Source: a virus (lineage: Duplodnaviria > Heunggongvirae > Uroviricota > Caudoviricetes). From it: 5,153 nt of DNA. The position numbers were made by a program, and so were the translations under genes. Location: the IMG/VR virus record IMGVR_UViG_2671181026_000008. One strand, written 5' to 3'. Positions 1 through 5,153 of this stretch are shown one piece after another; positions within the stretch are counted from its first letter, which is position 1, and every line of letters begins with the position of its first letter. The notes under the pieces are model-generated. The model did no database searches. It saw only the letters and a list, made by a program, of their open reading frames with translations, and was not told where the DNA came from.

Positions 1-49
1 TTAAAAAAAGAACAAATGGTAGTGTCCGCTATTGCCAGTACACCTCAGG
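1..49 (+). mobile_element. Right-terminal 49 bp of an IS3-family insertion sequence (window begins inside the element)
   Basis: Positions 1-49 are identical to 2700-2748, i.e. the last codon of the transposase ORF, its stop and the downstream terminal segment ending ...CACCTCAGG. Identity stops abruptly at 49/50 versus 2748/2749, as expected for an IS boundary. Confidence 0.6.
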
Positions 50-189
50 GTATAAGGGGTTATGGCCACCGGACTACCAAACGGCTGCCAGCCCTCTTTC
101 AGTTTATGTGTCAGCTTTTCCGCAAGATCTGACGGCGGCGCCGCCCTGACAACATCATAGTGTTTAAATGCCATGGTTCTTTCCACCAT
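1..189 (-). CDS. Small prophage protein, possibly DUF1737-like (family from memory, unverified); C-terminal ~16 residues and stop codon are encoded by the IS terminus
   Basis: 62-aa ORF from the track. The second in-frame ATG (172-174) has a GGTGGA/GGAAAG Shine-Dalgarno about 8 nt upstream, so the real start is probably there (MAFKHYDVV...). The last residues RCTGNSGHYHLFFF and the TAA stop lie in the 1-49 segment shared with the IS end. Confidence 0.45.
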   Translation of the reverse strand: MVERTMAFKHYDVVRAAPPSDLAEKLTHKLKEGWQPFGSPVAITPYTLRCTGNSGHYHLFFF

Positions 190-1771: not shown

Positions 1772-1851
1772 TGGACCGCCATCGGGGACCCGCCCCCGCA
1801 CCAACAACCCTGTTATCGTGTCGTCTGCTCTTCCTGATAAGCTAATGGCGG
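1772..1851 (-). pseudogene. Degenerate tRNA-like sequence: acceptor stem, D-arm and encoded CCA retained, but the anticodon-arm-to-T-loop core replaced by non-canonical sequence
   Basis: Flanks are identical to the tRNA-Arg(UCG) at 3281-3357 (CCGCCAT...ATGGCGG-T-CCA), but the internal ~43 bp differ completely. No anticodon stem-loop can be drawn, and the only T-arm-like hairpin (CGGGG-GCGGGT-CCCCG) has a 6-nt loop without the TTC motif. Confidence 0.5.
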
Positions 1852-1971: not shown

Positions 1972-1995
1972 ATAAAAAACCCGCTCGGCGGCGGG
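1972..1995 (-). terminator. Rho-independent terminator (tR'-like) on the minus strand
   Basis: GC-rich hairpin CCCGC...GCGGG (plus 1980-1995) followed on the minus strand by a run of six T (plus A-run 1974-1979). Confidence 0.5.
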
Positions 1996-2039
1996 TTGTA
2001 GAAACTCTTCTAACGTCAGGCATAAAACGCCCATAGTTA

Positions 2040-2119: not shown

Positions 2120-2748
2120 CAAACCGAGTCACCAAAGCGACTACGAACTCGAACCACAATCTGCCAGTTGCGCCAAATCTGCTGAACCAGACGTTCGCTC
2201 CTACAGCACCAAATCAGGTCTGGGTGGCGGACCTGACGTATGTTGCCACACAGGAGGGATGGTTGTACCTCGCTGGCATCAAAGATGTTTATACGTGCGA
2301 AATTGTCGGCTACGCCATGGGAGAGCGCATGACAAAAGAGCTGACAGGTAAAGCCCTGTTTATGGCGCTCAGGAGCCAGCGCCCACCTGCCGGGCTAATC
2401 CACCACTCTGATCGAGGTTCACAGTACTGCGCATACGATTACCGGGTCATACAGGAGCAGTCTGGTCTGAAAACATCAATGTCGCGTAAAGGTAACTGTT
2501 ACGACAACGCTCCGATGGAAAGCTTCTGGGGAACGCTGAAAAATGAGAGCCTGAGCCACTATCGTTTTAATAACCGGGATGAAGCCATCTCAGTAATACG
2601 GGAATACATTGAGATTTTCTACAATCGTCAGCGTCGTCACTCTCGTCTGGGGAATATCTCCCCGGCAGCCTTCAGGGAAAAATATCATCAGATGGCTGCT
2701 TAAAAAAAGAACAAATGGTAGTGTCCGCTATTGCCAGTACACCTCAGG
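2120..2748 (+). mobile_element. IS3-family insertion sequence remnant, 5'-truncated (no OrfA, no left end), intact right terminus
   Basis: Contains the C-terminal part of a DDE transposase OrfB. The element ends ...CACCTCAGG at 2748; on the other strand the terminus reads TGAGGTGTACTGGCAATAGCGGACAC, similar to IS3-type inverted repeats as I recall them. The left boundary is approximate, because repeat F extends to at least 2111. Confidence 0.8.
2122..2703 (+). pseudogene. IS3-family transposase OrfB, C-terminal fragment (DDE integrase core)
   Basis: In-frame translation gives TTNSNHNLPVAPNLLNQTF...PNQVWVADLTYV...HSDRGSQY...NCYDNAPMESFW...RRHS, the hallmark IS3 OrfB motifs including the D, D, E catalytic residues. 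The N-terminal third and OrfA are absent. The track ORF 2224..2703 starts at an internal GTG. Confidence 0.8.
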
Positions 2749-2946
2749 ATAGCGGTCATGTGATGCCGGTTTCCCGGTAACTCAGCACCGGTATCTGAGT
2801 CAACGTTTTCTCTACTGGGTCATTTCCGATACGCCCTGCCTGCTGACAGGCTTTCATCACATCTGAAAATATAGCACCCTGACTGATACTGTAGTACCTA
2901 AGGTTCCAGAAACTGTGATGTATCCGGCACAGAAAAGCCCCTCCGG

Positions 2947-3158
2947 AGAGGGCTGGAGAGTGGCGCTATGTGCCATTGCATGATGCCGGGTGCCTCCCGG
3001 TGAATTCAGTACCAGCACCTGAATCCGCGATTATCCCATATACCTACTCGCTGATTGCCCCTCCGCACAGGGGGATTCACCATGCCAGTTTCTTTTAACA
3101 AACTCCCCGCAAAACAGACAACTGTCAACCGTCTGAATTGTGAGACATTTAAAAAAAA
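2947..3158. repeat. Dispersed repeat C, copy 2 (near-identical to 807-1025); hairpin at 2947-2963 preceded by AAAA on plus, so a possible weak minus-strand terminator
   Basis: Direct sequence comparison with 807-1025. In this copy the segment directly abuts the tRNA-Arg(UCU) at 3191. Confidence 0.8.
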
Positions 3159-3190: not shown

Positions 3191-3267
3191 TGGCGCGTTG
3201 TACTGGATTCGAACCAGTGACCGATTGCTTAGAAGGCAATTGCTCTGTCCGGCTGAGCTAACAACGC
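3191..3267 (-). tRNA. tRNA-Arg (anticodon UCU), 77 nt
   Basis: Same cloverleaf as 1682-1758, with one substitution that turns the G-U acceptor pair into A-U. Anticodon loop CTTCTAA. Confidence 0.85.
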
Positions 3268-3280
3268 ATGATGCAGATAA

Positions 3281-3357
3281 TGGACCGCCATCGGGGACTT
3301 GAACCCCGCGCAGCCAGCTTCGAAGGCTGGCGCTCTTTCCTGATGAGCTAATGGCGG
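3281..3357 (-). tRNA. tRNA-Arg (anticodon UCG), 77 nt
   Basis: Reverse complement folds canonically: acceptor CCGCCAT/ATGGCGG, D-stem GCTC/GAGC, anticodon stem CCAGC/GCTGG, loop CTTCGAA, T-arm CGGGG-TTCAAGT-CCCCG, discriminator T, encoded CCA. Confidence 0.8.
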
Positions 3358-3364
3358 TATGTGA

Positions 3365-3440
3365 TGGTGGCCCTTGCTGGATTTGAACCAGCGACCTGGC
3401 GATTATGAGTCGCTCGCTCTCACCACTGAGCTAAAGGGCC
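3365..3440 (-). tRNA. ileZ: tRNA with CAU anticodon, ileX/ileZ-like (tRNA-Ile2), 76 nt
   Basis: Identical to 1859-1934. Anticodon loop CTCATAA, T-loop TTCAAAT, encoded CCA. Confidence 0.85.
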
Positions 3441-3480: not shown

Positions 3481-4539
3481 TCATCCGTTCTGGCTGACTA
3501 AATCCTGTACTTCCCGAACCGTCTGCTCAAAACGTTCAGTCTCCAGCTCAACGCCAATTGCACGACGCCCGAGCGCCAGTGCCGCTTTCACTGTCGAACC
3601 CAACCCCATGAAAAAATCTGCAATCAGGTCACCCGGACGACTGCTAGCGCTGATTATCTGCTGCAGCATTTCTGCCGGTTTTTCGCACGGATGTTTCCCG
3701 GGATAGAACTGCACCGGTTTATGCGTCCACACATCGGTATACGGCACCTGCACCGTCACGCCAAAATACCGCCGCAGATGTTTATATTCACTCAGCAGCT
3801 CCGCATACTGCCGGTTCAGTGAGGTATACGTATCCACCAGCTGGTGGTGGAGCTTTTCCAGTTCACCACGCCGATGCTTCTCTTCTGCCACCCGGGCAAA
3901 CAGCGCCTGTAATTTCAGATAATCGCTTTCATTCGGCAACTGCCACTGACCGGCACTGAACCAGTGCGACACCATGTTTTTCTTTCCTGTGGCATCTGCA
4001 ATCTGTTTTGCCGTTATCCCCAGGGCAGCTCGCGCATCACGAAAGTAAGAAATCAGCGGGGCCATCACATGCTGTTTCAGTGCACTGCCCTTCGCCGCAT
4101 ACCCGGCATCTTTCGGACGATACGGCCCCTGATAATGTTCCGCGAACAGAATGCGCTCTGTGGCGGGGAAATACGCCCGCAGGCTTTCCTTGTTGCATCC
4201 GTTCCAGCGTCCGGACGGCTTCGCCCAGATAATATGGTTCAGCACACTGAAGCGTTCACGCATCATGATTTCGATATCAGATGCCAGGCGATGACCACAG
4301 AACAGGTAAAGACTTCCGGCAGGTTTCAGCACCCGCCAGAACTGCGCCAGACACTGGTCCAGCCACTTCAGGTAATCATCGTCGCCCTTCCACTGGTTAT
4401 CCCAGCCCTCAGGCTTCACTTTAAAGTACGGCGGGTCCGTGACTATCAGGTCAACAGAATTTTCGGGTAACGACCGGATAAATTCCAGGCAGTCGGCGTT
4501 GATTAACTCACAACTGGATATTTTTACAGTATTAAGCAT
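3481..4539 (-). CDS. DNA methyltransferase, beta-class amino-MTase (N6-adenine or N4-cytosine), no cognate restriction endonuclease in the window
   Basis: 352-aa ORF. Catalytic motif IV DPPY (LIVTDPPYF) lies near the N-terminus and the AdoMet motif I FxGxG (DFFMGLGST) near the C-terminus, the circularly permuted order that defines beta-class amino-MTases. ATG at 4537-4539 is immediately preceded by an in-frame TGA. Shine-Dalgarno is weak. Confidence 0.9.
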   Translation of the reverse strand: MLNTVKISSCELINADCLEFIRSLPENSVDLIVTDPPYFKVKPEGWDNQWKGDDDYLKWLDQCLAQFWRVLKPAGSLYLFCGHRLASDIEIMMRERFSVLNHIIWAKPSGRWNGCNKESLRAYFPATERILFAEHYQGPYRPKDAGYAAKGSALKQHVMAPLISYFRDARAALGITAKQIADATGKKNMVSHWFSAGQWQLPNESDYLKLQALFARVAEEKHRRGELEKLHHQLVDTYTSLNRQYAELLSEYKHLRRYFGVTVQVPYTDVWTHKPVQFYPGKHPCEKPAEMLQQIISASSRPGDLIADFFMGLGSTVKAALALGRRAIGVELETERFEQTVREVQDLVSQNG

Positions 4540-4887: not shown

Positions 4888-5005
4888 GTCTTTTCCTTTT
4901 CCGGTTAACGTGACACACCAATAACTCTTGTCGAAAAAGCCAGCAAGCTGAAAGACAGGTATTCACCGCCACCAGCGCGTTTACTGTACTGACGCGATTT
5001 CAGTC

Positions 5006-5029
5006 ATAAAAAACCCGCTCGGCGGCGGG
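5006..5029 (-). terminator. Rho-independent terminator (tR'-like), second copy
   Basis: Same hairpin CCCGC...GCGGG (plus 5014-5029) followed on the minus strand by six T (plus A-run 5008-5013). Part of repeat F2 (5008-5153), which matches 1974-2111. Confidence 0.5.
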
Positions 5030-5074
5030 TTGTAGAAACTCTTCTAACGTCAGGCATAAAACGCCCATCGTTAT

Positions 5075-5110
5075 GACGAATTTACCACAGATTCCGGAAA
5101 AATCAACCTT
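5075..5110 (-). promoter_or_regulatory. pR'-like sigma70 promoter, second copy
   Basis: Minus-strand -35 TTGATT (complement of 5101-5106), 16-bp spacer, -10 TAAATT (complement of 5079-5084). This copy has an 8-bp tandem duplication (TTGTTACC/TAGTTACC) just upstream of the -35. Confidence 0.3.
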
Positions 5111-5153
5111 GTTACCTAGTTACCTTTTTTAACTGCCGCTCAGCCCATGCTTC

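Follow-up and report, generated by a model that had tools for sequence, protein, structure and literature searches.

The element considered here is an 80-nucleotide (nt) sequence at 1772..1851, on the minus strand, of a 5,153-nt stretch of DNA from the Caudoviricetes record IMGVR_UViG_2671181026_000008; this whole stretch is called the window below. The element, which reads CCGCCAUUAGCUUAUCAGGAAGAGCAGACGACACGAUAACAGGGUUGUUGGUGCGGGGGCGGGUCCCCGAUGGCGGUCCA and represents what we call the C-type allele, occupies the middle (argN) slot of a tRNA cluster of the form ileZ-X-argO. It is probably a non-decoding tRNA pseudogene, a decayed allele of the gene that occupies the argN slot. Judging from sequence comparison, its odd anticodon arm does not go back to the Arg(UCG) arm that occupies this position in the second tRNA cluster of the window, and it would represent an older lineage at the same slot.

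The window contains two lambdoid-prophage late-region tRNA clusters, both on the minus strand. In the window ARAGORN recognizes five tRNAs, none of them at 1772-1851. In copy 1, which holds the element, tRNA-Met/Ile2(CAU), or ileZ (1859-1934; Rfam 72.5 bits), lies 7 nt upstream of the element, and tRNA-Arg(UCU), or argO (1682-1758; Rfam 68 bits), lies 13 nt downstream. Copy 2 consists of tRNA-Met/Ile2(CAU) (3365-3440), tRNA-Arg(UCG), or argN (3281-3357; Rfam 58 bits), and tRNA-Arg(UCU) (3191-3267). The Rfam tRNA model (RF00005) gives the five called tRNAs 58-72.5 bits and has no match at 1772-1851, even at E<=1; at the same threshold no Rfam family matches the element or the related yahM and phiP27 loci described below. 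A first-pass annotation of the window had proposed both kinds of scan, and both call the neighbours and not the element. It had also taken the middle gene of copy 2 as a canonical tRNA-Arg(UCG), which ARAGORN, Rfam and the predicted fold bear out.

As the first-pass annotation described, the element shares its two ends, including an encoded CCA, with its copy 2 counterpart. Apart from one C to T substitution in the D stem, the first 29 nt agree, as do the last 18 nt. From its 5' end, the element begins with the acceptor-stem strand CCGCCAU (1845..1851), which is the same as in copy 2 and pairs with 1776-1782 in the minimum free energy (MFE) structure. The D arm, GCUU-AUCAGGAA-GAGC (1827..1842), keeps G18 G19 and A20, and has a U.G pair where other alleles have C-G. 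An extra connector, AGACGACA (1819..1826), follows; it looks like nucleotide 26 followed by the 5' half of an anticodon stem, and it also occurs in the yahM-type element. Next comes the remnant of an anticodon arm, CGAUAAC-AGG-GUUGUUG (1802..1818), with a 7-base-pair (bp) stem and a 3-nt loop in both the MFE and the centroid structure. The T arm (1783..1798) has an intact stem, CGGGG/CCCCG, and a 6-nt loop, GCGGGU, without U54-U55-C56 or A58. The 3' acceptor strand AUGGCGG, the discriminator U and the encoded CCA (1772..1782) are identical to those of copy 2.

The region that cannot be aligned with copy 2 is thus limited to a block of about 28 nt (RNA positions 26-53) plus the altered T loop (GCGGGU versus UUCAAGU in copy 2), and the T stems are alike. 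The 43-bp core without similarity that had been proposed is too large, as it takes in a T stem equal to that of copy 2. Nor does the element lack a foldable anticodon arm, as had been claimed: a 7-bp hairpin is present at the anticodon-arm position, and both the MFE and the centroid structure of the whole RNA are four-arm cloverleaves. The hairpin seen in place of the T arm is atypical in its loop but not in its stem, which is unchanged from copy 2. Folding energy was dropped as support for the element; its z-score of -1.29 is not significantly below that of shuffled sequences, whereas copy 2 has a z-score of -2.85.

Among the features of a canonical tRNA, the element has the 7-bp acceptor stem, the 4-bp D stem with G18 G19, the discriminator and CCA. 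It has no canonical anticodon arm (5-bp stem, 7-nt loop, U33, purine 37), and an 8-nt connector precedes its hairpin. It lies between ileZ and argO as argN does, and lacks the UCG in a CUUCGAA loop on a CCAGC/GCUGG stem. The element thus shows clear tRNA homology together with the loss of essential features, as a tRNA pseudogene would. The suggestion of a dead tRNA, one of several made in the first-pass annotation, is supported by the missing 7-nt anticodon loop, the missing T54-Psi55-C56, the failure of both programs to call the element, and polymorphism that appears to ignore structure (see below).

Two sources of the odd core were considered. Its start, GAGC-A-GACGA-C, is like the junction between D stem and anticodon stem in many Asn, Met and Ile tRNAs, but this is a generic motif. 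An inversion of the canonical arm was rejected by eye.

The core is not a replacement local to the window, as the first-pass annotation had it. A 101-nt stretch centred on the element was compared by blastn with 5,426 complete E. coli genomes and with phage records. Among records of complete E. coli genomes, 1,268 match the query at 99% identity or more and another 523 at 90-99%; the element itself is present without change in about 1,270 of the genomes. Five phage records, mEp460 among them, match the query at 100% identity. Sequencing error, which had been named as a possible cause of the divergence, is excluded by this recurrence. The recurrence of the variant core across prophages, which had been put forward as a check, is borne out: the core is found widely in E. 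coli genomes and phages. It is old as well as widespread, being common to phiP27-type prophages, the element upstream of yahM and, more distantly, Yersinia and other enterobacterial phages.

In phiP27-like prophages, a gene annotated 'tRNA-OTHER' by NCBI (for example, L002 3010-3090) has the same odd core, AGACGACACGAUAAC-AGG-GUUGUUGGUG, at the same position. It differs from the window element in two respects: its T arm, GGGGUUCGAGUCCUC, is canonical, and its D stem contains C-G in place of U.G. The same core and position are also found beside stx2i, where the arrangement has been given as 'tRNA - pseudo-tRNA - Arg' or tRNA-XXX (PMC13641118). In a full-text search of the literature, this passing remark was the sole mention of a pseudo-tRNA in the slot. 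The NCBI pipeline leaves the slot blank between tRNA-Ile and tRNA-Arg for the window-type element, and across pipelines the slot is labelled in different ways: blank, 'tRNA-OTHER', 'pseudo' and even Lys, Ser, Gln or Pro. The element itself is ordinary in the sense that annotators have already met its pseudo-tRNA arrangement, beside stx2i (PMC13641118) and as 'tRNA-OTHER' in phiP27-like prophages.

The 101-nt query also matches, at 80.6% identity, a chromosomal site upstream of yahM in almost every E. coli genome; the site is present in 5,169 of the 5,426 complete genomes (95%). It contains an unannotated tRNA-like element of 81 nt (L001 3009-3089, E. coli C). It agrees exactly with the window element over 33 nt at the start and 17 nt at the end, CCA included, and the two also share AGACGACA, a CAGG-containing loop and the UUGUUG strand. 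The yahM-type element differs in its 6-nt loop (CCAGGA), its canonical T loop and its own promoter-like site, and in being solitary and invariant. It folds as a cloverleaf with a 7-bp stem below the 6-nt loop. ARAGORN reads it as tRNA-Ser(GGA), placing an out-of-register anticodon at position 38; Rfam and RefSeq leave it uncalled.

The yahM-type element is strongly conserved relative to its surroundings. E. coli, E. albertii, E. whittamii, E. ruysiae and Escherichia sp. E1V33 (L001, L009, L010, L011 and L013) all carry the same 81-nt sequence, and one Shigella flexneri genome has one substitution. In a six-lineage alignment, 81 of 81 columns of the element are invariant at the species level, compared with 83 of 117 from the -35 hexamer to the element and 9 of 100 downstream. 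Within E. coli, the element is identical in 4,822 of 5,171 records, and the adjoining 81-nt leader in only 2,964 of 5,169. A further 348 records differ and appear to be the O157:H7 clade (the four sampled were O157:H7 or unserotyped); the variant was read in one O157:H7 genome, where it is a single change from G.U to G-C in the T stem, and this is the only E. coli variant seen. A sigma-70-like promoter-like sequence, TTGACA-16-CATAAT, lies about 88 nt upstream of the element and is kept across species. The yahM promoter was active and repressed by IHF in a reporter study (bioRxiv 10.1101/2025.05.13.653802). In the literature searched, no description of this invariant, promoter-bearing chromosomal copy was found, and no paper found mentions the element or its sequence. 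Taken together, the yahM-type element looks functional, unlike the window copy.

The gene yahM is missing downstream of the element in E. whittamii and E. ruysiae. Where it is annotated in E. coli C (L001 3079-3324), its start codon (ATGGCGGTCC...) falls inside the 3' acceptor strand of the element, and the O157:H7 open reading frame (ORF) for yahM is annotated with a start further downstream (L342 507-716). The long yahM start is probably a mis-annotation.

Relative to the yahM type, the core of the phiP27 and window types contains an additional CGAUA behind CGACA, has one base deleted and another substituted, and is followed by a variable region of reduced length. The CGACA/CGAUA of the connector region resembles a 5-nt tandem duplication. 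Together, such a duplication, the deletion, the substitution and the shortened variable region could have turned a 6-nt loop into the 3-nt loop on a 7-bp stem that is seen in the window.

The deeper ancestry of the odd arm is indicated by phage genes. With the yahM-type sequence as a query against phages, genes annotated 'tRNA-OTHER / tRNA-Pseudo-TTG' were found downstream of Q in Yersinia phages YeP1-3. The YeP1 gene (L265 3002-3079) has the arm CG-AUAAC-CAUUGCC-GUUGU-AGGUG, which contains the CGAUAAC...GUUGU.GGUG of the window element. The AUAAC/GUUGU stem strands of the element are homologous to the anticodon stem of YeP1 and of the members designated g1-g4. Pattern scans of IMG/VR built on strands of this type recovered a large family (L267-L341, in IMG/VR prophage contigs, and L343 1201-1277). 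Members usually sit between an ileZ-like tRNA upstream and a Thr(UGU), Gly(UCC) or Arg tRNA downstream, with spacers of 1-3 nt on both sides, and the flanks of two family loci match E. coli lambdoid phages mEp237 and HK639 and Yersinia, Aeromonas and Morganella phages.

Throughout the family, the acceptor stem is CCGCCA[CU], the D arm contains GGAA, N-CCA is encoded, the stem at the anticodon position is [AG][CUG]AAC or ACGAC with GUUGU, and the T arm is canonical, CGGGG-UUCGAGN-C[CU][UC]CG. The loop at the anticodon position has 5-7 nt, mostly 6, and takes many forms (CCAGGU, CCAGAU, CUUGGU, CUCGAU, CUCAGU, CAGGAU, CAUUAA, CAUCAA, CGUUAA, CAUUGCC, CAUUUAA, CUGAG). Most members lack U33, and several 6-nt loops have a U at the second loop position. 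For most members, ARAGORN returns 'tRNA-???' with two-base anticodons, that is, 6-nt loops. The labels that pipelines give to family members are tRNA-???, Lys, Gln, Ser, Cys, Leu, OTHER or nothing. The discriminator base varies among A, U and G, which would argue against a single conserved aminoacylation identity.

The body of these genes is conserved by pairing as well as by sequence. In an alignment of 32 sequences, the cloverleaf pairs are formed in 99.2% of cells, compared with 29-49% when the partners are slid by 1-3 columns. Acceptor pair 7:66 has undergone double compensatory change (19 sequences with C-G, 13 with U-A), as have two pairs of the anticodon stem. Canonical argN aligns within the family, its CCAGC/GCUGG stem being separated from ACAAC/GUUGU by two double compensatory changes. 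In the 27 loci of g1, the largest subgroup, the mean pairwise divergence is 3.8% in the scaffold, 27% in the loop and 29-38% in the 300-nt flanks. The tRNA body of the family thus appears to be under purifying selection, with a loop that drifts at a rate similar to that of the flanks. For the loop, both diversifying selection and targeted hypermutation were rejected, as its divergence of 27% does not exceed the 29-38% of the flanks and closely related phages among the 27 loci have identical loops. The family may be functional and appears undescribed: no description of a wider family with a conserved scaffold and a drifting loop was found within the literature searched.

A covariance model of the family, R1, places the element within the family and below its better preserved relatives. 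Copy 2 (canonical argN) scores 87.3 bits, the phiP27 type 79.4, the yahM type 77.2 and the window element 62.2 (E=4e-15, model positions 1-75 of 75). An allele with a run of 12 G (L241) scores 53.6. The margin for the element is small, as unrelated tRNAs also score, argO at about 57 bits and ileZ at 43. The element falls about 17 bits below the phiP27 type, and these two types differ mainly in the T loop. It has the family arm pattern, AUAAC...GUUGU-UGGUG-CGGGG, which is common to YeP1 and g4. It departs from the family in its T loop (GCGGGU instead of UUCGAGN) and in the length of its other loop (AGG instead of 5-7 nt), and these two failures are why it is called a decayed member. On pattern and model together, the element is a recognizable but degraded member of the family.

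The relationship to argN can be stated in the same terms. The Stx (Shiga toxin) and lambdoid ileZ-argN-argO clusters, whose gene names are taken from Stx2a phage records, have argN in the same slot and in the same R1 family. The acceptor stem, the D arm (bar one C to T change), the T stem, the discriminator U and CCA match those of the element. The element differs in lacking the CUUCGAA loop with UCG, in an anticodon-variable region that is 3 nt longer and of another lineage, and in its destroyed T loop.

The near-identity of the neighbours had been taken as a sign of block replacement rather than gradual decay. It is true that ileZ is identical between copy 1 and copy 2 in the cluster alignment and that Arg(UCU) differs by one base, which gives an acceptor-stem U-A pair in one copy and U.G in the other. 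Outside the tRNAs the two copies are less alike: in the sequence before ileZ 5 of 26 positions differ, in the first spacer 1 of 7 and in the second 5 of 13. By these differences, the two clusters are old, diverged alleles from different lambdoid lineages and not recent duplicates, and the neighbouring tRNAs are near-identical because of selection on functional tRNAs rather than recency. A third allele of Arg(UCU), seen in other prophages, has a compensated T stem, CAGUGG...CCACUA.

To follow the slot across prophages, IMG/VR was searched with the neighbouring tRNAs as anchors and the intervening sequence was read. In the 212 loci of this survey, the middle region takes the form of 67 alleles. 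Many are Arg(UCG); others are of the phiP27 type ('B') or the window type ('C'), or are 80-nt deletion derivatives. PPompW and vB_EcoS-689R5 have Lys-like middle alleles with a CCUUUAA loop. On the argN scaffold, a single base change turns UCG into UGG (L266 1512-1588, phage TL-2011c, called tRNA-Pro) or into UCU (L195). Even in Stx phages, anticodon identity in the middle slot is evidently poorly protected. The 22 alleles with the odd core, B and C, all go uncalled by ARAGORN.

The two altered regions of the element have different histories in this survey. T loops of prophage alleles form a graded series: UUCAAGU/UUCGAGU, UUCGGGU, CUCGGGU, CCCGGGU, GGCGGGU, AGCGGGU and GCGGGU. Several of these steps occur on genes with a canonical Arg arm, such as L228 and L068, and L228 is a recombinant that combines a canonical arm with a C-type T loop and a C-type spacer. 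Graded T loops on canonical-arm genes imply that the T loop was lost gradually and that the loss was spread by recombination. No intermediates between the canonical anticodon arm and the odd core were found among the surveyed alleles. Block replacement therefore describes the anticodon and variable region, which is a discrete allele without intermediates, but not the T loop, which changed gradually.

The population pattern of the C type, read in a sample of closely related prophages, fits relaxed constraint. Of 89 C-type loci, 43 depart from the main allele in the core or the T loop, and 18 carry a G to C change that breaks a pair in the hairpin. Other variants include an A to G change in the connector and G runs of 4 to 12. 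The central G run belongs to a G-rich tract, AGGGUUGUUGGUGCGGGGGCGGG, formed by the decayed T arm and adjoining bases (window 1783-1811, minus strand), and is a slippage hot spot. Among the phiP27-type copies, about half carry a mismatch that breaks the T stem, CCUGG. In each of the two allele classes, the middle gene exceeds ileZ in nucleotide diversity by a factor of about 7 (0.015 versus 0.002 and 0.072 versus 0.010).

Based on these comparisons, the following history of the element may be proposed. The older lineage at the slot would have had a normal acceptor stem, D arm, T arm and CCA, with a 5-7-nt loop that drifted freely and was mostly without U33. In the E. coli branch, which includes the phiP27 type and the yahM copy, the anticodon arm would have been remodelled further. 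An apparent 5-nt duplication would then have brought the loop of the window allele down to AGG, after which the T loop may have been lost stepwise and a U.G pair gained in the D stem. The element would be transcribed only within the Q-antiterminated late transcript, between ileZ and argO, and a ribosome could not read it.

Bacterial RNase P recognizes minihelices composed of an acceptor stem, a T stem or arm and CCA, and it separates closely spaced tRNA precursors. In the element, the acceptor stem, T stem and 3' UCCA would still make up such a minihelix, and the element is probably excised and then degraded. Its excision would be a by-product of the maturation of its two functional neighbours, and may help to set the 3' end of ileZ and the 5' end of argO. 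The element would persist by being wedged between two selected tRNAs and carried along by recombination. As analysed here, it may be at most a passive RNase P processing module. E. coli K-12 has other tRNA pseudogenes, ptwF, pauD and pawZ, which lie at prophage junctions and are partial duplicates at attachment sites. The element resembles them in being non-functional and prophage-associated, but it is full length, lies inside a late-operon array and would have arisen from an alternative allele followed by decay.

Several observations weigh against a simple pseudogene. The element is full length, and the C type is the commonest allele in E. coli; viable phages, mEp460 for one, carry it. Only 3 of the 89 C-type loci show a change in the acceptor or D region, which is compatible with residual constraint. 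The contrast with the core is one of 1 versus 4 non-singleton sites, with G-run slippage, and it is not significant. The closest well-preserved relative, the yahM-type element, is under very strong purifying selection. Lastly, a few family loci are solitary, without adjacent tRNAs. These solitary members and the solitary chromosomal copy also weaken the idea, tried for the family as a whole, that it is simply entrenched between packed tRNAs.

These points could be accommodated if the element were still a functional trans-acting tRNA-like RNA, either a decoy for a toxin, a nuclease or an enzyme, or a regulator matured by RNase P. The family keeps its scaffold (divergence of 3.8%, compared with about 30% for the flanks, and compensatory changes), some of its members are solitary in phages, and the chromosomal relative is invariant at 81 of 81 positions in five Escherichia species, its sole E. 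coli variant being the G.U to G-C change. The window element itself retains the acceptor stem, D arm, T stem and CCA, and 62 bits on the family model. What it has lost speaks the other way. The T loop, the part that makes the tRNA elbow, has been destroyed, with a G run that varies from 4 to 12; pair-breaking G to C changes are common in the hairpin; the loop has 3 nt instead of the 6-7 nt of conserved members; and the fold z-score is only -1.29. No function for any family member was found in the literature searched. We regard a surviving trans-acting role for the element as doubtful, though it is the strongest of the alternatives, and the first-pass suggestion of a structured RNA with another role is unlikely for the decayed window copy, though it may apply to the family. 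Functional analogues would be the 'tRNA-Other' of Bacillus cereus and the phage antisense RNAs C4 of P1/P7 and CI of P4, which are tRNA-shaped or processed by RNase P, have an acceptor-like stem and CCA, and act outside translation. The analogy applies to the family only, and a sequence relationship is not expected.

A cis-acting role is less probable still. The element could be a selected processing spacer, at which the RNase P cut makes the 3' end of ileZ and the fold protects both ileZ and argO against misfolding. At most family loci the spacers are only 1-3 nt (Met-2-X-2-Thr/Gly), which leaves RNase P as the sole plausible separator, and it is the scaffold rather than the anticodon loop that is constrained, as RNase P recognition would predict. 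The window allele keeps exactly the acceptor/T-stem minihelix plus CCA. In the E. coli cluster, on the other hand, the spacers are 7 and 13 nt, which implies a weaker dependence on X, and a precise deletion of the element would serve equally well. Such a role explains neither the stand-alone members nor the solitary chromosomal copy, and RNase P has no need of the covariation seen in the anticodon stem.

An integration-site mimic (attP/attB-like) for an integrase, another suggestion of the first-pass annotation, is very improbable. tRNA-like genes are classic integration targets, and the sequence that follows the chromosomal relative differs strongly from species to species, with yahM present or absent. 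The element, however, lies between Q/tR' and the lysis genes; its neighbours are Q, a methylase and tRNAs, with no integrase adjacent or nearby. No partial direct repeat of its 3' end was seen, and the family is kept over the full cloverleaf and not just the 3' core. The least probable reading, hardly worth entertaining, makes the element a non-canonical decoding tRNA or a sequencing or assembly artefact: it does fold as a four-arm cloverleaf and ARAGORN does give its relatives anticodons (Ser-GGA for the yahM type, two-base ones for g1 and g2), but its 3-nt loop, its lack of a U33 or R37 context and of a T loop, and the silence of ARAGORN and Rfam oppose decoding, and the presence of the same sequence in more than 1,200 complete genomes excludes an artefact.

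Taken as a decayed allele of the argN slot, the element alone matters mainly for the annotation of that slot. In Escherichia, Yersinia and related phages, the middle slot holds a tRNA-shaped gene in which the body is conserved and the anticodon loop is not. It is a tentative proposal, which we hold to be rather unlikely, that the element is a fading member of an undescribed class of non-decoding, tRNA-shaped RNAs that act via the tRNA body. If true, members of the class could be tRNA-body decoys for tRNA-targeting toxins, defence nucleases or tRNA-binding enzymes, or regulators matured by RNase P. Escherichia would then have domesticated one copy, with its own promoter, upstream of yahM, and the prophage copies in E. 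coli might decay because the chromosome already supplies the function. Should the RNA upstream of yahM prove to be expressed and stable, the best-studied bacterium would contain a conserved tRNA-like RNA that is missing from its annotation.

The surroundings of the two clusters are those of a lambdoid late region. A terminator scan finds a terminator-like hairpin followed by a U run at 1978-1997 (minus strand), 44 nt upstream of ileZ in copy 1, which would be the late-operon terminator tR' that is read through by Q. A module of about 130 nt at 1971-2100 is repeated at 5005-5153, upstream of copy 2, and has a minus-strand terminator-like hairpin at its end. It is probably the late promoter/tR' region of the two prophage lineages. 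The module gives weak Trp-leader-like Rfam matches, and its second copy has an 8-nt insertion, TGTTACCT. In related loci the Q antiterminator lies just upstream of the cluster and the lysis genes just downstream, and we infer that the clusters are part of a Q-dependent late transcript. Between the late promoter region and the tRNAs of copy 2 is a DNA methyltransferase ORF (3481-4539, minus strand; Pfam N6_N4_Mtase, E=8e-42).

The two clusters appear to have been joined by a rearrangement associated with an insertion sequence (IS). A truncated IS3-family transposase ORF with rve integrase core domains (E=2.6e-21) lies at 2224-2703 on the plus strand. A 50-nt repeat is found at window positions 1-50 and at 2700-2750, the latter after the truncated IS3-family ORF. 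The exact 5.1-kb arrangement of the window is found in none of the complete E. coli genomes in the collection, where the best matches are joined pieces. Downstream of each cluster is one full copy of the prophage small RNA STnc100 (796-985 and 2925-3114, minus strand; Rfam 132 and 124 bits), and a weak partial match to STnc100 lies at 2698-2886 (minus strand; Rfam 21.8 bits). A 111-amino-acid ORF at 435-770 on the plus strand is without a Pfam match, and its counterpart in related records is annotated as the anti-adapter protein IraM.

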